Shown here: positions 3,966 through 41,687 of the stretch, piece after piece | Numbering within the stretch: position 1 is the stretch's first letter | How the letters are laid out: each line of letters starts with the position of its first letter | Virus record (IMG/VR): IMGVR_UViG_2585427754_000009 | From: a virus | Taxonomy: Duplodnaviria > Heunggongvirae > Uroviricota > Caudoviricetes | Direction: 5' to 3' (one strand) | Length of the DNA: 41,687 nucleotides | Position numbers and translations under genes: made by a program | The notes under the pieces: model-generated | Seen by the model: the letters and a program-made list of their open reading frames with translations, nothing else | Told to the model about the DNA's origin: nothing | The model's database searches: none

Positions 3966-4433
3966 TTTGCTGCTCCTCATCATATCGACCCTGCAAGGCC
4001 GATTAGTTTCTCCACAAAACAGAGAAGAACACCTGCGGTGGCAGCCGCCCGGATGGATTGGGTTATGAGCCCGTCGTCCGGTGATGCTCTTCTCTGTTTT
4101 GTAAAAAGGACGGTACCAGCCGGAAGCAAGAGTACAAGCTGGTACCGCCAGGACTACACACAGCATAAAGTTGTGGTGCCGGGTGCCTCCCGGTGCCTGG
4201 CGAAGGTTGCACACCAGGCGGGTGGGTATCTACAGAAGGTCGACTGTCAGCCTCAACCTTAACCCGCGTGCGCTGAGCCGCATTCACCACAACGCTAAGA
4301 ATTCTCTCTGGTTGAAAATACTTAGCTGTTATGTGCCTGCTTTTAGCCACATCAGGCGAGGTGGACCTGGTTATTCCCCAACAACAAGGATTCGGTTAAT
4401 CTGGTTATCCCCAACAACGCAAAAGGAAAAGAA

Positions 4434-4868
4434 ATGTCCGGTAATATCTACACGCTGTACAAATCCCACTGTGAAAATGTTGGAAAGTATCGGGGCATTG
4501 AAATCAGTGGGGTAGTGTCATCAGTCGAAATAAGCAAAGTCGAATCAAGGGCAACATTACTTACTCTTCTGGACCTTGTCTTACATGAGCACCGGAAGAA
4601 ATTCGGCACTCCCTATAATCAGTTGAATGGGAAAAAGGCTCTGGTTCACCTTATTCTGATGAAGCATCACTGGATGCCAAAACAGATTAATGAGATGAAA
4701 TTTGATGAACTTCTTCTTTCAATTCAGGATGAACTCACACTTGATAAAATAAGCGTAACCGCCCAGAAATTTTTAGATTATCGAGACTGGAGATCACAAA
4801 TTCATCACTTTGATGATTTTGACGAAAATGAATGGGATCCTAATTTGTCTGCACAATATCTAAAGTAA
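4434..4868 (+). CDS. Hypothetical protein, 144 aa, no family recognised
   Basis: ORF with AAGGAAAAG Shine-Dalgarno-like sequence 5-13 nt upstream of the ATG. Opposite orientation to the surrounding leftward operon. Preceded by two 18-19-bp direct repeats. Confidence 0.5.
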   Translation: MSGNIYTLYKSHCENVGKYRGIEISGVVSSVEISKVESRATLLTLLDLVLHEHRKKFGTPYNQLNGKKALVHLILMKHHWMPKQINEMKFDELLLSIQDELTLDKISVTAQKFLDYRDWRSQIHHFDDFDENEWDPNLSAQYLK

Positions 4869-4983
4869 CATCCTGTGATAAAACCGTGATTTCCTGATCC
4901 AGTTTTTTTAAGGAGTCTATTATTTCCTGTCGATAAGACAGCACTTCACGAAGCTGGTTTATAGCTGCCAGCTTCTTTGCCAT
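4840..4983 (-). CDS. Small ORF (47 aa), possible remnant of a leftward-operon gene
   Basis: In the pre-insertion reading frame a stop lies 2 codons upstream of the IS target site, so only a 47-aa ATG-initiated ORF (MAKKLAAINQLREV...) is possible. Weak RBS. Confidence 0.25.
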   Translation of the reverse strand: MAKKLAAINQLREVLSYRQEIIDSLKKLDQEITVLSQDVTLDIVQTN

Positions 4984-5031
4984 CCACTCGTAAATTTCCT
5001 CATTTGTGTATCCGGGCGCGACGATTTTGGG

Positions 5032-5040
5032 TTCTGTTTT
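5032..5040. repeat. Target-site duplication (TTCTGTTTT), left copy
   Basis: Identical 9-mer at 6097-6105 directly flanks the other IS end. Confidence 0.9.
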
Positions 5041-6096
5041 GGCTTTGTTGAATAAATAAGATTTCGTGCGAACGACCCTGTAGCTGGCTGGATTTTCAGG
5101 CAATACGCACGCTTTCTGGCATCCCAGCCTTTGTCATCCTGTTCAACGCACGCACCATGGCCATAGCTTCCGCTACCTGACCATCGTAGTCACGCAGCGT
5201 CAGTGAATCTCCCAACAACTGCTTCATTCTGTACATTGCCGTTTCCGCTATCGAGCGACGGTTATATTCCGTTGTCCATTTCCACCGTGCATTGCTTCCG
5301 CTCAGCCGCTGATTAGCAACGGCACGGTTGCGGTCTGCGTACTCACCGGGCCAGTAACCTGCTCCTTTTCGGGGAGGAATAAGCGCGCTGATTTTTTTGC
5401 GGCGCAGTTCATCGTGACAGAGCCGGGTATCGTAAGCCCCGTCTGCCGCGGCTGCCCTGATTTTTCTGTGAGTCTGCCGGATAAGGCCCGGGAAGGCTTC
5501 TGAGTCCGTGACGTTATTCAGCGACAGGTCTGCACAGACAACTTCATGTGTGTTGCTGTCAACAGCAAGATGCAACTTTCGCCAGATACGACGGCGCTCT
5601 TTGCCGTGCTTTCTGACTTTCCATTCGCCTTCACCAAAGACCTTCAGCCCGGTGGAATCAATCACCAGGTGTGCGATTTCACCCCGGGTGGACGTTTTGA
5701 AACTGACATTAACCGACTTTGCCCGCTTACTGACACTGGTGTAATCCGGGCAGCGCAACGGAACGTTCATCAGGGCAAAAATGGAATCAATAAAACCCTG
5801 CGCAGCCCGCAGGGTCAGCCGGAATACGCGTTTAATCACCAGAACGGTGGTGATGGCGAGATCAGAATAGCGCTGGGGCCTTCCTCGTGATGAAGGCGTT
5901 GCCGACTCATACCAGGCCTGAATCGCTTCATCATCCAGCCAGAAAGTGAGGGAGCCACGGTTGATGAGAGCTTTGTTGTAGGTGGACCAGTTGGTGATTC
6001 TGAACTTTTGCTTTGCCACGGAATGGTCTGTGTTGTCGGGAGGATGCGTGATCTGATCCTTCAACTCAGCAAAAGTTCGATTTATTCAACAAAGCC
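5041..6096 (-). mobile_element. IS903-like insertion sequence (IS5 family), 1056 bp
   Basis: Terminal inverted repeats GGCTTTGTTGAATAAAT(A/C) at 5041-5058 and 6079-6096 (17 of 18 identical). Single transposase ORF. Flanked by a perfect 9-bp direct repeat. Confidence 0.92.
5096..6064 (-). CDS. IS903-family transposase
   Basis: 322-aa ORF ...QKFRITNWSTYNKALINRGSLTFWLDDEAIQAWY... recognised from memory as IS903/IS102 transposase (DDE). True start may be a few codons inside the ORF. Confidence 0.92.
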   Translation of the reverse strand: MKDQITHPPDNTDHSVAKQKFRITNWSTYNKALINRGSLTFWLDDEAIQAWYESATPSSRGRPQRYSDLAITTVLVIKRVFRLTLRAAQGFIDSIFALMNVPLRCPDYTSVSKRAKSVNVSFKTSTRGEIAHLVIDSTGLKVFGEGEWKVRKHGKERRRIWRKLHLAVDSNTHEVVCADLSLNNVTDSEAFPGLIRQTHRKIRAAAADGAYDTRLCHDELRRKKISALIPPRKGAGYWPGEYADRNRAVANQRLSGSNARWKWTTEYNRRSIAETAMYRMKQLLGDSLTLRDYDGQVAEAMAMVRALNRMTKAGMPESVRIA

Positions 6097-6105
6097 TTCT
6101 GTTTT
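6097..6105. repeat. Target-site duplication (TTCTGTTTT), right copy
   Basis: Identical to 5032-5040. Confidence 0.9.
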
Positions 6106-6359
6106 GTGCATTTCACACCTCCTCAAGTTATCAGTTACTTGTTGATGGGGACCAGATTGTTAAAGAGCTAAGCGTCCTGTAGGGCGCTTTTTTGTTGCTA
6201 ACGAATCATCCTGGACTTCATATGCCCCAGGCGGCTACTTCGTGGGCGTCCTGCCTGTTCGTTTTTGACATTTACTGACTGCTTACGACACATGCACCGT
6301 GTTGCAACCAGATTTTGTTGTAATCCTGTAGTTGGTCTGGAACAAAAGATAAAATTAAA

Positions 6360-6396
6360 TTGCTAGATATGCAAGTGATATTTGCGGGATATGCAA
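6360..6396. promoter_or_regulatory. Putative OL operators (two 15-bp sites)
   Basis: TTGCTAGATATGCAA (6360-6374) and TTGCGGGATATGCAA (6382-6396) match TTGCGTGATAAGCAA in the cI-cro intergenic region at 13 of 15 positions; TTGC...GCAA dyad. Confidence 0.5.
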
Positions 6397-6409
6397 ATTG
6401 ATAGGTAAT

Positions 6410-6430
6410 AAAAAGCCACCTTTCGGTGGC
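6410..6430 (-). terminator. Intrinsic terminator downstream of cI
   Basis: GCCACC-TTTC-GGTGGC hairpin (6415-6430); on the minus strand it is followed by a U5 run (A-run 6410-6414 on plus). Lies 20 bp after the cI stop. Confidence 0.6.
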
Positions 6431-6449
6431 CGATGGAAGGATATTGAGG

Positions 6450-7142
6450 TTAATTATGTCTCTTAAGGGTTTGCGACTGACTGATTAAGACCTTTCCAAA
6501 GACCATGAATCGGTGTTCGTTTTCGCTAGTAATTCCCCATTCACGGTAAATCTGGTTATCAGAAATCACCAGCAGTTTGTCAGGAATCATTTGAAGTCTT
6601 TTAACGTATATTTTGTCATCAAAACCAAAGACATATATACCATCACCATCAAACTGATTGATGCTGACATCAACGAAGATGAGATCTCCTGGCTCAATGG
6701 TTGGACACATACTGTCCCCACGAACGTTGATAACTTTGATGTGATTGGCTGGTCGTCCGCCGAACATTGATACAGCATTATCAGTTCTGTATTCGATGGC
6801 ATGAATCACATCAATGACATCACCGCCCTGGATAAGGCCATTTCCCGCACTGGCACTGATATCCAGCATTTCAATACGGAACACATCCTTCACCTGCGCA
6901 ACATCCTCATCATTACTGTTTTTATATACAGTATTACTTTTGTGGGCAGAGGTAAAGAGATCAGCAATATCAACACCTAAGCTCTTGGCAATATTACTCA
7001 GTGTTTGTTCGGTAAATTGTTTTTGCTTACCCGTTTCTAAGCGCGAGATGTTCGCCGCATCTACTCCTATTGCTTCAGCGAGATCGGCGATTTTCATGTT
7101 CTTCGCTTGGCGAAGTTGTCTGACTCGGTTTCCTATGTTCAT
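6450..7142 (-). CDS. cI: CI-type repressor (HTH_XRE + S24 LexA-like peptidase)
   Basis: N-terminal HTH (KIADLAEAIGVDAANISRLETGK), Ala-Gly cleavage site (SASAGNG), catalytic Ser (VRGDSMCPT) and Lys (VKRL). Divergent from cro. Confidence 0.9.
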   Translation of the reverse strand: MNIGNRVRQLRQAKNMKIADLAEAIGVDAANISRLETGKQKQFTEQTLSNIAKSLGVDIADLFTSAHKSNTVYKNSNDEDVAQVKDVFRIEMLDISASAGNGLIQGGDVIDVIHAIEYRTDNAVSMFGGRPANHIKVINVRGDSMCPTIEPGDLIFVDVSINQFDGDGIYVFGFDDKIYVKRLQMIPDKLLVISDNQIYREWGITSENEHRFMVFGKVLISQSQTLKRHN

Positions 7143-16931: not shown

Positions 16932-17486
16932 ATGAACGAAAATTATATTGCATATGAGACACTTGTAGCAAACCGTGCTGCTGCTGAGTGGGCTTGTTGG
17001 GCAATGATTGCATCTTGGGTGAGTGCTGGAGCTACTATTGTTACTTTGTTTTTGGCGTTCAAGGCATTATTTACGTGGCGGGAACAAGAGAAAACAAAAG
17101 TAAAAATAGATTTTAGGAATGCATTAAAGAAATTAAAGACAGCTCTATTATTTATGCCTGTCAATATTGACCCCGAGCAACTCAATGATGAACGAGAGCA
17201 AGTTATTGCGAAATGGCTATTTAAAGATGTAGATCTTATTAGTCAGCAAATTGAGTTGGGAGAAGAGAATGTTAAAAGATTTGATGAGCTTTTGAGTATT
17301 TTCGATTGTTGCCAATCTTCATGGTTTGCGACAGAGCACTTATTTGATAATACTGAGTTAGAAAAAGTTTGGCATGAGTTCGAGTCTAACTTTAATAAAT
17401 ATATAAATGGTGGTGAGAGTAAGGATTTACTTATGAAAATGCTTGATAAGCTCATCTCTTCTAGATTTGTATTTGAGTCAAGATAA
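16932..17486 (+). CDS. Hypothetical membrane-anchored protein (184 aa) on an AT-rich moron
   Basis: GAGGT RBS. One N-terminal TM segment (AEWACWAMIASWVSAGATIVTLFLAFKALF) then a Lys/Glu-rich helical domain. Local GC visibly far below neighbours. Between lysis cassette and HNH/terminase. Confidence 0.6.
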   Translation: MNENYIAYETLVANRAAAEWACWAMIASWVSAGATIVTLFLAFKALFTWREQEKTKVKIDFRNALKKLKTALLFMPVNIDPEQLNDEREQVIAKWLFKDVDLISQQIELGEENVKRFDELLSIFDCCQSSWFATEHLFDNTELEKVWHEFESNFNKYINGGESKDLLMKMLDKLISSRFVFESR

Positions 17487-34812: not shown

Positions 34813-35387
34813 CAAACGATGATTACATCCGTCTGTTGTCGGCACTGTTGCCCCCCGGTCCGGCGTGGTCAGCCAGCGATCCGGCGATTGCCGGTGCGGC
34901 ACCGTCATTAACCCGCGTTCATCAGCGTGCGGATGCCCTGATGCGGGAGCTGGATCCGCGCACCACCACTGAACTGATAAACCGCTGGGAGCGTCTGTGC
35001 GGCCTGCCGGATGAATGTATTCCGGCGGGAACGCAGACCCTTCGCCAGCGTCAGCAACGGCTGGATGCGAAGGTTAATCTGGCGGGCGGCATCAATGAGG
35101 ATTTTTACCTTGCACAGCTTGCTGCCCTGGGCAGACCGGATGCCACCATCACGCGATACGATAAAAGCACTTTCACCTGCTCATCTGCCTGTACTGACGC
35201 GGTGAATGCGCCGGAATGGCGGTATTACTGGCAGGTCAACATGCCAGCCGCCACCAACACCACCTGGATGACATGTGGCGATCCCTGTGATTCCGCGCTG
35301 CGTGTCTGGGGCGACACCGTCGTCGAATGTGTGCTTAACAAACTCTGCCCGTCGCATACCTACGTAATTTTTAAATATCCGGAGTAA
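34803..35387 (+). CDS. Tail protein, YmfQ / Mu gp48-like (DUF2313)
   Basis: 194 aa beginning [22 protein letters not shown], recalled as the e14 YmfQ family; immediately upstream of the tail fibre. Confidence 0.7.
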
Positions 35388-35390
35388 TCC

Positions 35391-36116
35391 ATGCATCGTA
35401 TAGACACGAAAACCGCGCAGAAGGATAAGTTCGGCGCGGGTAAGAACGGTTTTACCCGTGGTAACCCCCAGACAGGCACGCCTGCCACCGATCTGGATGA
35501 TGACTACTTTGACATGTTGCAGGAGGAGCTTTGCAGCGTGGTGGAGGCATCCGGTGCCAGCCTGGAGAAGGGGCGGCACGACCAGTTGCTTACCGCGCTT
35601 CGTGCGCTGCTGTTAAGCCGCAAGAATCCGTTTGGCGATATCAAATCGGATGGCACGGTGAAAACGGCTCTCGAAAACCTTGGTTTGGGAGAAGGCTCAG
35701 CATTACCTGTTGGGGTGCCTGTTCCGTGGCCTTCAGCCACTCCGCCAACAGGCTGGTTGAAATGCAATGGTGCGGCTTTTTCTGCTGAAGAATACCCGGA
35801 ACTGGCAAAGGCTTACCCGACAAATAAATTGCCTGATTTACGCGGTGAATTTATTCGTGGATGGGATGATGGGCGCGGGGTGGATTCCTCTCGTGGTTTG
35901 TTGACATCTCAAGACCATTTATTTGCTTCTCATGGGCACTGGTTTGACAAGTACTATGCGCTAACAGGTTTTGATCCAACGGGAGGTCGGTTCGTAGTTA
36001 CGGCTGATGCTTTCGGGGAACTTATTACGGCAAATTCAATTTCTACGGTATCGGTTGGTGGTTCTGAAACCCGGCCGCGCAACGTCGCATTTAACTATAT
36101 CGTGAGGGCAGCCTGA
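35391..36116 (+). CDS. Tail fibre protein (constant N-terminus joined to the currently expressed variable C-terminus)
   Basis: GGAG RBS. 241 aa. Recombination crossover site lies in codons 93-101. C-terminal collar-like motif [19 protein letters not shown]. Confidence 0.8.
35668..35693. repeat. Invertase crossover site (gix/pix-like), left
   Basis: CTCTCGAAAACCTTGGTTTGGGAGAA; the last 14 bp are a perfect inverted repeat of 37514-37527. Confidence 0.75.
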
Positions 36117-36718
36117 TGAATAAAGCCGTATTAAATAGCGAACTCATTACTACAAAGGCAGGAAACATTACCGTTTATAATTTTGATGCTGAGACGAAGG
36201 AATATCTTTCCACATCAACCGAATATCTTGTTGTGGGTGTCGGTATTCCGGCGTATTCCTGTTTAGATGCTCCTGGTACATATAAGGCTGGTTATACTAT
36301 CTGCCGTTCAGCAGATTTAAAATCATGGGAATATATGCCAGACCATCGCGGTGAAATCGTTTTTAGCACCGAAACAGGGGAATCAAAAGAAATCACAGCT
36401 CCGGGTGATTACCCTGATAATACAACCACTATCGCCCCGTTAACGCCATACGATAAATGGGATGGTGAGAAATGGGTGACGGATACCGAGGCACAGCACG
36501 GCGCAGCAGTAGATGCAGCAGAAGCACAGCGCCAGTCGCTGATTGATACTGCAATGGCCTCCATCAGTCTGATTCAGCTGAAATTGCAGGCCGGACGTAA
36601 ACTGACGCAGGCAGAAACAACCCGCCTTAACGCTGTGCTGGATTACATTGACGCGGTGACGGCAACAGATACCAGCACCGCGCCGGATGTCATCTGGCCT
36701 GAACTGTCGGAGGCGTAG
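36116..36718 (+). CDS. Tail fibre assembly chaperone (Tfa)
   Basis: 200 aa. The C-terminal third (ALTPYDKWDGEKWVTDTEAQ...DVIWPELSEA) is homologous to the C-terminus of the convergent minus-strand Tfa. Confidence 0.8.
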   Translation: MNKAVLNSELITTKAGNITVYNFDAETKEYLSTSTEYLVVGVGIPAYSCLDAPGTYKAGYTICRSADLKSWEYMPDHRGEIVFSTETGESKEITAPGDYPDNTTTIAPLTPYDKWDGEKWVTDTEAQHGAAVDAAEAQRQSLIDTAMASISLIQLKLQAGRKLTQAETTRLNAVLDYIDAVTATDTSTAPDVIWPELSEA

Positions 36719-37133
36719 GCCATTCAATATCTGGCGCACCGGAAGTATCGACCAGCTCCAGTGCGTCCAGATAATCCAGCCACAAATTATATTGCGCCAG
36801 TTCGTCACCTTTCAGACGACCAATAGCGGCTTTACCGGGCCATTGTTTACTGTTCATGTATTCGTTGGCCTGGTTAATTAATAGCTGTCTTTCTGATTCA
36901 GTAATTTCAATAAGCTCTTCATGCGTGGGTGGAGGAATATCTGCCCACGCAGGCAGCCCATCATTTCCGGCAATACGGATCTTTCCTTGTGGCGGTTCAG
37001 CCATAAACTCACTGATAATATTTTGATTCACTTCCTTAGCATCTGATAAATCCCATCCCTCTGATTTATATTTATCAATCATATCCACAGGGAAAAAAGC
37101 ATTATGCCTTGCGCTATAAACATATTCGTTCAT
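36690..37133 (-). CDS. Alternative tail fibre assembly chaperone (Tfa')
   Basis: ATG at 37131-37133 with AGGGTGA RBS. Product MNEYVYSARHNAFFP...DIEWPTPPTVQAR typical of the Tfa family. Convergent with tfa, 29-bp overlap. Confidence 0.8.
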   Translation of the reverse strand: MNEYVYSARHNAFFPVDMIDKYKSEGWDLSDAKEVNQNIISEFMAEPPQGKIRIAGNDGLPAWADIPPPTHEELIEITESERQLLINQANEYMNSKQWPGKAAIGRLKGDELAQYNLWLDYLDALELVDTSGAPDIEWPTPPTVQAR

Positions 37134-37153
37134 ATAAATCACCCTGAATAAAA

Positions 37154-37513
37154 TTACTCACCAACAGCCCACCAACTGTAATTCATCGATACCGTGTCGC
37201 TGGTTGATGACGTTCTGTAAGCAGAATTAAAGCCGGTTAACGTTGGGCCTTCTGCAGTCATCACGAACCCTCGCCCAGCGCCTAAAGGCGCACCGCCATC
37301 ACCAGAATGAGTAAGCATGGCGCAGTCCGCTTTTTTGGGGAAAGGGATGCTGAATGTAATTCTCATTGTTTGCGTCGATAATGTCGGCGTAACCGCACCA
37401 CGACCATATTGCAGGATTTTCCCGTTGGGTAATTTCATCCATCCATCACCACTGGCAAAAGAGGCCATGTCCGGTATCTGATTTTCCCCTGTCCCCACAT
37501 CCCGTTTTGCCGC
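37154..37513 (-). other. Silent alternative tail-fibre C-terminal coding segment
   Basis: Open frame without its own start codon; it begins inside the crossover site in the same codon phase (GLGE) as the expressed fibre gene, so inversion would fuse it in frame to the constant N-terminus. Confidence 0.75.
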
Positions 37514-37539
37514 TTCTCCCAAACCAACGTTTATGAAAA
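37514..37539. repeat. Invertase crossover site (gix/pix-like), right
   Basis: TTCTCCCAAACCAACGTTTATGAAAA; inverted copy of the left site; lies just upstream of the invertase remnant. Confidence 0.75.
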
Positions 37540-37593
37540 TGCAGAAATAACGAGCAAATGGCATCATTCCTGCTTTTGTCAGGGGGAGCTACC

Positions 37594-37722
37594 ATGCTTA
37601 TTGGCTATGTACGCGTATCAACAAATGACCAGAACACCGATCTACAACGTAATGCGTTGAGCTGTGCAGGATGCGAGCTGATTTTTGAAGACAAGATAAG
37701 CGGTACAAAGTCCGAAACCTAG
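37594..37722 (+). pseudogene. pin: Truncated serine DNA invertase (Pin/Gin/Hin family), 42 codons only
   Basis: AGGGGGAG RBS then MLIGYVRVSTNDQNTDLQRNALSCAGCELIFEDKISGTKSE, matching the Pin N-terminus from memory including the catalytic Ser in VRVSTNDQ; then an immediate stop and unrelated AT-rich DNA. Confidence 0.85.
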
Positions 37723-37817
37723 GGCTGACACTGCTGTTCTTGTTGCAAATTAAAGGATTTAATAGTGAGTAGCGGCCTTACTAATGTAAAGCCGCTATAA
37801 TCATTTTATTAATTGCA

Positions 37818-39707
37818 TTAATCGTGTTTTGGCCATACTTTCAATGCAATTTCCCCCAACTTTTTACCCCGCTCCAGGATTTCATCCTCATCCCATTTAT
37901 CCTTAACTATAAGTGGAATGTTCAGTCGTAGATTGGTGTGGACGATGAGAGCATCACGTTTTTTCAGAAATACAGCATTCTGAACAGAACGGTTTACGCT
38001 AAGGTTAAGCAAAGTTAGATTTCCCAACGTAGCTATCGCTTGTTGCCGTTTCCTTACCAGTAGCTGTTCAGGGGTAAGATCGGTTCCAGACAGAACAATT
38101 TGGTTCAATACCGTAGCATCTGAATTTGTCACCATATGACCATTTTCGAGAGGCCAACAGGAATACCAACTTTGAGGCATAAGATGATCGATATCGAGGT
38201 TAGAAAGATTTGGAACATCAGGCTTCTCTGTCTTCACTTGGCGACAAAGTTCTCTTTCAAGTTCCGTTAACATTGAGCGCATTTTCGGTGCGTCGAGCCT
38301 GCCAGGATAAAGTGGAGCATTGATGCAAGCGTTGAGAAATTCTGAGTCCCCAGGCCAACGTGAGGCTTCGCCATTTAAGCTATTGAGGATATTACGTAAC
38401 TCAACACTGGAAATTTCCGTTTTAGACAAGTGCCGCAATACATTCATAAATACATTGTTGTAATTCTTTGGCGTCAGGCCACATACGGCTCTTCGTACTA
38501 CGTAGGAGACAAGATCATTATACATGGCTGCTTTCTCATCATCGGCGATGTTAGCTATCGAAATGAACAAAGCAAGCGGATAAAGTGTCGTCACATCATA
38601 GGCTGCGATGCGATGTCCAAAGTGTGAGATGGGGGTTGTGCCAAAACCACCAACCAATTCTTTATATTGTGATGCATATTGTTTGAGGCGCTTTACTTGC
38701 AGATCTGCTCGTTGTGAAGGCAAGTCCTTACTTACATAATCACGATACTCATTGTAAAGACGAGACAGATCGATTTCACGTTGCCTTTCTGATTGCAATG
38801 TCGCATGCACTAGCCACTCCATGCGTGGTTTATTAATACGACCACGACGTTGTCTTTCTGACCAGTACGTATCTTCAAAGATCTTCCACTCATTCTCATA
38901 TAATTCAACAGCATTAATATTTTCATGTTCAGCGCACATAAAAATATAATTGCGAATAAGATCTGTGGCATGAAGTTCCGCACCTCTGCCATTTAATGTT
39001 TCAAAAATTATTTGAGCGTCATCTTCAGCCTCGAGAAATATGCTTACTAGTTTCAGATCCGTCAAGACAGCCTCAATTAATGCTACAGCATTTTCTCGTG
39101 GTGAGTGATTTTCTATTTTAATCCACTTTATAAAGGCTTCAGTAAAAAAACATAATGCTTCTAGTGATGGCGGGTGATTAAAATGCTTACGCAACGTACC
39201 ATGCTGCGTGAAACTATCAGAGAATACATTCCGGATATCGTCAATATTTTCAACATTAAAACTTTGAATAAAATGAGTTTGATCCCGAAAAGTTGGCCAC
39301 AGTTTGAAGCGCTCTACTTCTTTATTTCGCATTGTGTCTTCGTTTGAGTTTTTCAGGCAAGACGAAATGAGAGGCTCTAAGTTGGAAAGATCTGTCGCAC
39401 GTAATGCTAATCGGATGGATGCCAGAACATATTGAAGAGTGGTCAATCGTTGCTGACCATCAATAATATGTATGGAATCTACACCTAATAATCCTTTTTT
39501 TGGTTGAGGTTCCAGTACCACTGCACCAAGGAAATGGGGAGTTGGTTTTGTACCCGAGAGCCGGGATTGTGCTTTCTCTAGGATATCCTCCAGTAGAGCT
39601 GACCATTGGTTTCGCTGAGTCCATACATAGGCACGTTGATAGAATGGAACGCAGTATTGTCGGCGGTCTTGAAAAAGTTGTTGGACAGTTAGCGTCTCGG
39701 ATTTCAT
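37818..39707 (-). CDS. GmrSD-family type IV restriction endonuclease (DUF262 + DUF1524)
   Basis: N-terminal DUF262 motifs (VPFYQRAYVW and IIDGQQRLTTL). C-terminal DUF1524 His-Me finger region (DIDHLMPQSW...LGNLTLLNLSVNRSV). Start at MKSETLTVQQ (39705-39707) preferred over 39767. AT-rich island. Confidence 0.8.
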   Translation of the reverse strand: MKSETLTVQQLFQDRRQYCVPFYQRAYVWTQRNQWSALLEDILEKAQSRLSGTKPTPHFLGAVVLEPQPKKGLLGVDSIHIIDGQQRLTTLQYVLASIRLALRATDLSNLEPLISSCLKNSNEDTMRNKEVERFKLWPTFRDQTHFIQSFNVENIDDIRNVFSDSFTQHGTLRKHFNHPPSLEALCFFTEAFIKWIKIENHSPRENAVALIEAVLTDLKLVSIFLEAEDDAQIIFETLNGRGAELHATDLIRNYIFMCAEHENINAVELYENEWKIFEDTYWSERQRRGRINKPRMEWLVHATLQSERQREIDLSRLYNEYRDYVSKDLPSQRADLQVKRLKQYASQYKELVGGFGTTPISHFGHRIAAYDVTTLYPLALFISIANIADDEKAAMYNDLVSYVVRRAVCGLTPKNYNNVFMNVLRHLSKTEISSVELRNILNSLNGEASRWPGDSEFLNACINAPLYPGRLDAPKMRSMLTELERELCRQVKTEKPDVPNLSNLDIDHLMPQSWYSCWPLENGHMVTNSDATVLNQIVLSGTDLTPEQLLVRKRQQAIATLGNLTLLNLSVNRSVQNAVFLKKRDALIVHTNLRLNIPLIVKDKWDEDEILERGKKLGEIALKVWPKHD

Positions 39708-40512
39708 GGTATACCTGTAAGCGACATTGTACAAAAGTGAGGAGTTAATCTGATTTAGAACAATCATTTTATGTTGCTATGATACAACGTATTTGTTACC
39801 GGTTAAGTAAAAAACGCGTCTGAACGCTGACGTTTTAGGGCTTTACTAGTTATTCTTTCTTATCTCTTCATCATCCCATCGGCATCCTGTCGAGGTTGTT
39901 GACTTGTTGTTATTTATTTTGTTTAGGCGCTGTTTAATTATTATTGATGGGACTGGTGGTGAGAGGTGATTGAAACCGCAGACAGGTCGTATGCAAGACG
40001 TGCTGCGGTTGGCTGGTAAATGTTAGATAGTGCGAGTATTGAATGATTTCTAGCCGTTATTGATTTTACGTATTTTTGTATGAGAGGATTTGCATCTCCT
40101 GCCACCGACCCTCCATGACTTTACGCCACTGTCTCTAGGGCTGCTATGTGCCAGGAGCAGCCATTGCTAAGTCCATCCTGTATTGTGCAGGTCAGCTCGT
40201 TTTTAAAGAGTCCGGCCATCATCTTACTGGTACAGACACCATATACTTTGTGACGGTCAGGCTACATATGCACAACTCAACTTATTCATCTATTTTTTGC
40301 TTTAGCATGTCAGTGTTGCTTTCTCGTCGGCGGGTGAGCGGTGACCTGACCTGTCGATAAAGGAACGTAGCACGTTTTATGCAACACCCGCATGCGGCAG
40401 AAAATTATTGCCGAACGTTTACCCCTGTCAACAAGCTTTACTTTCTGAGGCGCGCCAGCCCGCGAGGAAAACAATCTGAACATCAAACAATTAATGACAC
40501 AAGAAATACGAT

Positions 40513-40539
40513 TAAAGATTTTTTTGTGCATGCCGATAG
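40513..40539 (+). promoter_or_regulatory. Sigma-28 (FliA) promoter of flxA
   Basis: TAAAGATT, 11 bp, GCCGATAG; near-perfect match to the class 3 flagellar consensus TAAAGTTT-N11-GCCGATAA; 24 bp upstream of the flxA ATG. Confidence 0.75.
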
Positions 40540-40562
40540 TGCTTTTTTAAAAGGAGAAATCT

Positions 40563-40895
40563 ATGTCTGTCACAATTCAGGGAAATACCTCAACCGTTAT
40601 TTCAAACAACTCCGCCCCGGAAGGAACATCAGAAATAGCCAAAATCACAAGACAAATTCAGGTGCTGACTGAAAAGCTTGGGAAAATCTCATCGGAAGAG
40701 GGGATGACGACACAGCAGAAAAAAGAAATGGCTGCATTGGTACAGAAGCAAATTGAAAGCCTCAGGGCTCAACTGGAGCAGTTGTTAAGGCAGCAGGCAG
40801 AGAAAAAGAATGAAGACGCGACAGTTCAGCCTGATAAAAAAGAAGAGAAAAAAGACGATACAAATACCGCTGGCACCATTGATATTTACGTCTAA
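40563..40895 (+). CDS. flxA: FlxA
   Basis: 110-aa product MSVTIQGNTSTVISNNSAPEGTSEIAKITRQIQVLTEKLGK... recognised from memory as E. coli FlxA; AAGGAGA RBS. Confidence 0.85.
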   Translation: MSVTIQGNTSTVISNNSAPEGTSEIAKITRQIQVLTEKLGKISSEEGMTTQQKKEMAALVQKQIESLRAQLEQLLRQQAEKKNEDATVQPDKKEEKKDDTNTAGTIDIYV

Positions 40896-40909
40896 GTGAC
40901 AGCCGTATT

Positions 40910-40932
40910 GTGGCCCTCATCGGGCCACTTTT
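40910..40932 (+). terminator. Intrinsic terminator after flxA
   Basis: GTGGCCC-tcatc-GGGCCAC hairpin followed by TTTT; 15 bp after the flxA stop. Confidence 0.7.
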
Positions 40933-41255
40933 CGCCATCAGTCTTTTCTTTAAAGACATATTATCTTTGTATCATTTCTGATAGTTAACATTACAAGATA
41001 TAAGTAATGGACGCACTCCCAATTAGTCTATTTAAATCGCCACGAGTTTAACTGACAACCCATGATCAATTATGAATTGCAACTATTTCTGTAGTCACTT
41101 TTGTGGGGACAGTCCACAAAACTGCCAACTTCCGCTTCTTGCTCATAGCGGACCTTACAACCACCTGATTGGTCCGCTCCGTGTCAGGAGCGGATACCGT
41201 AAGCATTTTATCCTCTGGAGGGGCATCCCTTTCAAGAAATGCATCCGTTGTGGAT

Positions 41256-41687
41256 TTATGCAACACCTGAAGCTACTAACAAAGAACAATTTGTCTGACC
41301 AAAGGCATTTTTTAGCAGCGGGAAAAGAGGGGGAAGTTCCGTTAGCGATTTTAGAGGCTTGAGGCTCTTAAGTGATTTAAGTGATGGCAAATTAGGTGTG
41401 GTAACCATGTCTTTTACTGCACAGGCAACATAGCCATCGTGATCAATCAACATACCATTAGTAAACCAGCCTAAATGATTCCCATTGAATCCATAAACAT
41501 CAAACTCATTGTTCTGGTTATGTTTAAGGTAGGCGCTTGGTTCACCCTCCCAACTATATAAAGTCAACTCGTCATCAAGTGAAATATAAACGACGGCGTT
41601 GCCTTGATTATCATATAGATCTAGGTCATTACTCGCAGTAACACAAGCTGAGAAAAGAAACATAACTAGCACGAGTGATTTTTTCAT
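41256..41687 (-). CDS. Hypothetical secreted protein (143 aa) with SLK repeats
   Basis: ATG is the last three bases of the window. Signal peptide MKKSLVLVMFLFSACVTA. Internal SLKSLKSLKPLKSL repeat. Confidence 0.6.
   Translation of the reverse strand: MKKSLVLVMFLFSACVTASNDLDLYDNQGNAVVYISLDDELTLYSWEGEPSAYLKHNQNNEFDVYGFNGNHLGWFTNGMLIDHDGYVACAVKDMVTTPNLPSLKSLKSLKPLKSLTELPPLFPLLKNAFGQTNCSLLVASGVA

Follow-up and report, generated by a model that had tools for sequence, protein, structure and literature searches.

A probable orphan orthologue of the e14 P inversion segment in an SfV-like prophage

How would a tail-fibre inversion switch be turned once the invertase gene beside it has been destroyed? 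This question is raised by a locus in a 41,687-nucleotide stretch of caudoviral DNA (IMG/VR virus record IMGVR_UViG_2585427754_000009, the whole of which is called the window here), where an earlier note, made from the letters alone, had proposed a Gin/Pin-type host-range switch of the design seen in the Mu G, P1 C and e14 P segments. The structural part of that assignment stood: by identity of its sites and proteins, the locus is literally the P segment of the Escherichia coli K-12 element e14, in a more complete relative. Left unstated in the note, and merely implied by its suggestion that an invertase be supplied in trans, was the truncation of the adjoining invertase gene (pin). From comparative sequence analysis, we consider it likely that the locus, an inversion switch of the Gin/Hin/Cin/Pin class, is orthologous to the e14 P segment but has been orphaned and would be turned only in trans. 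It is a member of the invertase switches by descent, not a self-sufficient system.

Crossover sites and the two fibre cassettes

The two 26-bp crossover sites, here named pixL and pixR (Table 1), lie in inverted orientation, agree at 21 of their 26 positions and share a perfect 14-bp core. They are intact, as the earlier note had described them, and each is identical to an experimentally defined crossover site of the K-12 e14 P segment (26/26 in both cases). Each consists of two imperfect 12-bp half-sites flanking a 2-bp centre, which is TT in both, and both are built to the AAACC-NN-GGTTT plan seen in gix and cix. The repeat formed by these sites, TTGGTTTGGGAGAAGG, is also where the e14 P segment is reported to invert (PMC12529663). 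In a repeat search, the arms of pixL and pixR lengthened to 20 nt at 95% identity (35675-35694 and 37513-37532).

Within the 41.7-kb window, the exact 14-bp core has two copies only. When up to two mismatches were allowed, 3 matches were obtained against 0.32 expected, a number that was reached in none of 100 shuffles; the third of these matches, at 17251, is without the left half-site and was taken as chance. A scan of the window for further AAACCNNGGTTT centres returned the two real sites and background only. Because no extra credible AAACCNNGGTTT site was present, the locus is best described as a simple two-site switch and not as a multi-site shufflon.

The placement of the sites relative to the reading frames was likewise as the note had it. 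pixL spans codons 93-101 of the fibre open reading frame (ORF) at 35391-36116, and pixR sits at the start of a silent fibre tip on the minus strand; both encode GGT TTG GGA GAA (GLGE) in the same codon phase. A core that is coding in both copies, specifies the same peptide and is kept by the non-invertible fibre of Shigella phage SfV might be thought to reflect nothing more than a conserved GLGE fibre motif, arisen by chance or through coding constraint and without a role in recombination. The outer half of pixR (TTTTCATAAACG), however, lies beyond any fibre domain and is nevertheless the same, letter for letter, as in e14, the shuffles did not reach the observed number of core matches, and the flips seen in natural genomes have their ends precisely at these sites (the pairs ES7/ES8 and T2/127, described below). 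With these observations, a purely coding origin of the repeat is effectively refuted.

Between the sites lie two convergent cassettes of tip and chaperone, each tip with its own Caudo_TAP gene. The constant part of the fibre is 97% identical to the N-terminus of K-12 StfP (residues 1-105), and the gene 5' of the fibre encodes a Mu gp48-like protein (YmfQ). The tip that the constant part now joins is 58.6% identical in amino acids to the protein encoded by K-12 stfE, and the plus-strand chaperone is 86.5% identical to K-12 TfaE. On the minus strand, the alternative chaperone is 52.7% identical to K-12 TfaP; the silent gp53-like tip showed no similarity to the K-12 StfP tip and begins GLGEAAKRD.., matching the fibre of the viable phage SfV. 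On the basis of these assignments, the window is in an “E-on” orientation, in which the StfE-type collar tip and the TfaE orthologue are the expressed pair, opposite to the orientation of the MG1655 reference. The 3' ends of the two convergent chaperone genes have 29 bp in common (36690-36718), like those of tfaP and tfaE of K-12 e14, and both chaperones end in a conserved ...APD(V/I)(I/E)WP... motif that is encoded on opposite strands of neighbouring sequence.

Inversion of 35680-37527 in silico, with exchange at the central TT, yielded an uninterrupted fibre of 220 aa (the window form has 241 aa), in which the constant N-terminus runs into the gp53-like tip and is followed by that tip's own Tfa chaperone. 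The in-frame swap of tip and chaperone by an inversion of about 1.8 kb, as foreseen in the note, was thereby recovered, with 1848 bp turned, an open 220-aa fibre and two Caudo_TAP chaperones. The two tips are of unrelated folds (Collar versus Gp53-like_C) and, by analogy with Mu G and P1 C, may give different host ranges.

Next to pixR, a short leader opens an ORF into whichever tip adjoins this site. The leader resembles residues 1-25 of K-12 stfE and, by this similarity, is the counterpart of the stfE leader. A promoter and terminator scan of 35200-37900 gave background levels, with no promoter-like match reading into the leader ORF.

The truncated invertase gene and the enhancer stretch

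To the right of pixR, where a complete pin gene would be expected from the e14 layout, the window has a stump that is identical to K-12 pinE at 120 of 124 nt and to gin and cin at 94-95 of 124 nt, with the breakpoint at 37717/37718. The Pfam Resolvase profile (PF00239) is matched on this stump at positions 2-48 of 145 only. Beside the segment, there is no full small serine recombinase, i.e., a protein of about 180-190 aa with a catalytic domain and a C-terminal helix-turn-helix. Since the cis invertase gene has been destroyed, the switch is an orphan that would turn only if another prophage or a plasmid in the same cell supplied an invertase of the Pin/Gin family.

The enhancer of such systems lies within the invertase gene, and its position was taken here from the P1 GenBank annotation (cin nt 19-90). 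The equivalent stretch of the window, aligned without gaps, is identical to K-12 pinE at 69 of 72 positions and to cin at 55 of 72, and lies 86-157 bp from the centre of pixR. The truncation thus spared the stretch that, judged by homology, would serve as a Fis-dependent enhancer.

With these parts, the switch would be expected to work as follows. A dimer of a serine (Pin-family) invertase would be bound at each 26-bp site, and a Fis-bound enhancer just to the right of pixR would join the complex, in which cleavage at the central TT, rotation and religation would take place. The 1848 bp between the centres would be turned, such that the StfE-type collar tip and TfaE would be replaced in frame by the gp53-like tip and the TfaP-like chaperone. 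The constant codons 1-96 would accordingly be read into either tip, depending on orientation.

The same breakpoint in pin was found in YF-1, strain 127, ES7 and ES8; in YF-1, the stump is labelled “recombinase, incomplete” by RefSeq. Just past the cut, on the opposite strand and where e14 has mcrA, lies a gene for a GmrSD-family restriction enzyme. Of 5426 complete E. coli genomes, 304 (about 5.6%) have the identical junction of truncated pin and this gene, and the prophages concerned sit at two integration sites, thrW and ssrA. From this distribution, the truncation seems to go back to a single old event and to have spread afterwards. An induced E. coli myovirus, phage vB_EcoM-606R2 (ON470579.1), has the same layout of fibre, chaperone and invertase, and its DNA invertase ORF (4115-4429), annotated at 104 aa, represents a different truncation of the same gene.

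Table 1. Coordinates of the P-type locus and its neighbours, numbered from the first letter of the window
Feature	Position	Strand	Basis or remark
Constant N-terminal fibre part (codons 1-96), outside the segment	35391-35679	+	ORF 35391-36116
Left crossover site pixL	35668-35693	+	CTCTCGAAAACC-TT-GGTTTGGGAGAA; central TT = 35680-35681
Invertible P-type segment	35680-37527		1848 bp between central dinucleotides; ES7/ES8 flip
Expressed variable fibre C-terminus, StfE-type collar tip	35680-36116	+	PF07484 Collar, E=1.8e-15
Chaperone of expressed tip, TfaE orthologue, 200 aa	36116-36718	+	PF02413 Caudo_TAP, E=6.7e-32
Alternative TfaP-like chaperone, 147 aa, silent in window orientation	36690-37133	-	PF02413, E=3.9e-30
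Silent alternative fibre C-terminus, gp53-like	37154-37527	-	Fused form: PF21882 Gp53-like_C, E=3.1e-12
Right crossover site pixR	37514-37539	-	Reverse complement = TTTTCATAAACG-TT-GGTTTGGGAGAA
Short pin-proximal leader (MMPFARYFCIFINV)	37528-37567	-	ORF 37154-37567
Stump of pinE-type serine invertase gene	37594-37722	+	pinE nt 1-124, 41 codons; stop 37720-37722
Enhancer-equivalent stretch inside pin stump, putative Fis enhancer	37612-37683		P1 record: enhancer = cin nt 19-90
GmrSD-family type IV restriction gene (context only)	37818-39767	-	PF03235 + PF07510; PADLOC mREase_IV, 1440 bits, full length

Both orientations in genomes with a truncated invertase gene

A single sequence shows one state only, and orientations were therefore counted among complete E. 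coli genomes that matched 35300-37800, either as is or flipped computationally; at 80% coverage or more, 79 genomes had the arrangement of the window, and 70 had the flipped one. In several sets of isolates, orientation alone differs: MEI2B-1023 and MEI3A-1023 versus MEI1-1023, which have the same genome length and locus coordinates, and likewise CH425 and CH423 versus CH458, and NWU_3 and NWU_4 versus NWU_1.

Both orientations were also found among loci in which pin is truncated. ES8 (as in the window) and ES7 (flipped) came from the same sediment, and their loci differ by 1 single-nucleotide polymorphism (SNP) in 10,501 bp once an exact inversion of 1848 bp is allowed for. Among loci with a pin stump 99.7% identical to that of the window, the arrangement of strain 127 was met in 16 genomes and its exact flip in 3; over 2581 bp, the locus of the E. 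coli strain named T2 and the inverted form of the strain 127 locus agree at 100.0%. Because all these loci share one breakpoint, these inversions postdate the loss of the invertase, and their simplest cause is probably an invertase supplied in trans, as judged from the sequences. A query consisting of a GmrSD tag and the 3' part of pinE had matches in 4792 of the 5426 complete E. coli genomes; as the query includes 3' pinE, potential invertase donors appear to be common. Strain 127 (4720-6845) illustrates that other cassette pairs, e.g., one with a glycine-rich tip, occupy the P segment in the same pin-truncated lineage. RefSeq annotates the fibre gene with this glycine-rich tip in two pieces, one a fragment called “StfP, incomplete” and the other a protein of its own. 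The presence of differing cassette pairs at otherwise near-identical loci indicates that tips have been exchanged.

General homologous recombination across the 14-20 bp repeat would leave the same product in the sequence and would need no cis invertase. A repeat of that length is very short for RecA. In addition, the sites have the full architecture of two half-sites and are identical to e14 sites whose inversion needs Pin proteins, while the near 1:1 ratio of orientations and the near-identical isolates that differ in orientation indicate a high rate. We regard this origin of the flips as highly improbable.

Several observations weigh against current activity of the switch in the window's own strain. 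Searches of the window by tblastn with PinE and Gin found no other invertase. In YF-1, the nearest relative (99.9% identical to the window over 35300-37800), the e14 site at icd is empty, and only one further match, unlocated, was obtained with the query of GmrSD tag and 3' pinE. Over its 72 positions, the enhancer stretch of the window has 3 mismatches to K-12 pinE. Finally, in K-12, deletion of pinE leaves the P segment locked despite the presence of chromosomal pinQ and pinR (PMC12529663), with the caveat that this deletion removed the enhancer as well.

One alternative is a frozen relic, formerly active but locked with StfE on in this lineage since pin was truncated, in which case the orientations of relatives would represent rare or old events. 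The reduction of the invertase to 41 codons with no other in the window, the locked K-12 mutant (PMC12529663), the skew of 16 to 3 in the strain 127-type group, and the viability of SfV with a fixed fibre and a relic site are all in its favour. Rare or old events, however, are difficult to reconcile with a precise flip between ES7 and ES8 at 1 SNP in 10.5 kb or with the 100% identity of T2 and 127 after the flip; this near-identity implies that inversion took place recently and later than the one truncation in their common ancestor. Neither the two sites nor the enhancer stretch, moreover, has been lost. A locked state in this lineage is on balance unlikely, though well short of negligible. 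We accordingly keep to the reading of an orphan switch turned in trans, from which we infer that flipping would also occur in the window's strain at present.

An orphan state need not mean decay. The sites and the enhancer stretch have been kept, the junction is found in about 5.6% of genomes and at two integration sites, and both orientations occur; the fibre switch may have been handed to the invertases of other prophages as a selected cross-prophage control circuit, possibly with a use at the host surface or in defence. We offer this as a tentative idea that is rather doubtful at present.

A further alternative is a defence switch domesticated by the host, in which the product of the ORF composed of leader and gp53-like tip (37154-37567), the fibre, or both would be made by the lysogen to block adsorption of other phages, with the segment inverted by the invertases of other prophages. 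For K-12 e14, StfE2, a product formed by P inversion, is reported to block adsorption of phage T2, and action of PinQ in trans has been reported (PMC12529663). The window has the equivalent leader ORF, and the orphan arrangement stands beside a restriction gene in 304 genomes. The tip joined to the leader in the window is unrelated to the K-12 StfP tip, however, and there is no promoter-like site into the leader ORF. The prophage also retains a complete SfV-like virion module, which makes ordinary use of the fibre the simpler reading. Domestication for defence is therefore improbable, and an orphaned fibre switch turned by invertases from elsewhere remains the preferred interpretation.

The carrier prophage and comparison with known systems

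The carrier, judged from its sequence, is a myovirus prophage of the SfV/e14 family integrated at thrW. The annotation of YF-1 shows some 41 kb of prophage at thrW, in which the head genes are of HK97 type and the tail genes of Mu type. The structural module of the window has about 97% nucleotide identity to Shigella phages SfII, SfI, SfIV and SfV, and this similarity stops at 35694 (pixL). As the similarity breaks off exactly at the left crossover site, pixL also marks where one mosaic module gives way to another.

The prophage may be defective. An IS5-family transposase (DDE_Tnp_1_5 + DDE_Tnp_1) lies at 5096-6064 on the minus strand, within the early/immunity region; this insertion was absent from all complete E. 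coli genomes searched, and the close relative YF-1 has an IS1 in yfdR instead. To the right of the restriction gene (39800-41687) are Qin-like remnants, namely, a partial ydfV and flxA (40563-40895), as well as a gene of the “4-fold beta flower” type. A search of the window for any 13-mer of thrW, as a trace of a possible attR, found none, and the prophage thus appears to have been eroded on its right-hand side or fused there to an older remnant.

Inversion of the P segment, its repeats, the action of Pin proteins in trans and polymorphism among genomes (33% of 562) have all been published (PMC4272514, PMC12529663), the last two in 2025. The original descriptions are reportedly those of Plasterk and van de Putte (1985) and Kahmann et al. 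(1985). The system is thus already known, indeed a textbook one, and the locus opens no new question. The additions made here are modest, namely, that the cis invertase gene is cut with the enhancer stretch spared and that this orphan form is widespread and occurs in both orientations. A common E. coli prophage lineage without an invertase of its own is nonetheless found both ways round, which fits action of Pin-family invertases across prophages. The main value lies in annotation: RefSeq lists individual “tail fiber protein” fragments next to a partial recombinase and leaves the invertible segment unmarked, so that the alternative 220-aa fibre is invisible and differences in orientation could be mistaken for rearrangements.

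The closest known system is the e14 P segment with PinE (K-12 ymfQ-stfP-tfaP-tfaE-stfE-pinE-mcrA). The window shares this locus order after the Mu gp48-like ymfQ, with an StfE-type tip and with pin beyond pixR on the right, ahead of a type IV restriction gene. It differs from e14 in the length of the segment (1797 bp in K-12 versus 1848 bp in the window) and in its second cassette, which has a gp53-like tip unrelated to that of StfP. Other differences are that pin is cut after nt 124 in the window, that a GmrSD gene takes the place of mcrA, and that the segment is carried by a near-complete SfV-like prophage at thrW, whereas e14 is a 15-kb remnant at icd.

SfV itself (orf21/orf22) is about 97% identical in its structural genes up to pixL and has the identical 26-mer in orf21, from which its fibre continues GLGEAAKRD.. 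like the flipped form of the window. The use of this flipped-type architecture by a viable phage supports the flipped form as a real fibre. In contrast to that of the window, the SfV fibre is not invertible; there is one site only, with a single tip and a single chaperone, and an invertase is absent. The slot downstream is occupied in SfV by gtr genes.

The G segment of Mu with Gin and the C segment of P1 with Cin likewise have a constant 5' end of the fibre gene, two convergent tip and chaperone cassettes, and 26-bp sites. Their enhancer falls within the first ~90 nt of gin or cin, and the window stretch is its equivalent by homology. Both segments are longer (3 kb for Mu G and 4.2 kb for P1 C versus 1.8 kb in the window), and at the central dinucleotide, the window TT is shared with cix, whereas gix has TC. 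Unlike Mu and P1, the window is without a functional invertase. The original descriptions are reportedly those of Plasterk and van de Putte (1985) and Kahmann et al. (1985).

Precedent for turning in trans comes from systems in which one element's segment is turned by the invertase of another, as a window without pin would need. PinQ, PinR and PinE were each shown in 2025 to invert the e14 P segment, PinQ and PinR doing so in trans (PMC12529663). According to the same paper, hix and the Salmonella H segment are targets of Fin of Fels-2, and the Mu G segment is a target of PinE. Those segments, however, keep an invertase of their own, whereas supply in trans would be obligatory for the switch in the window.

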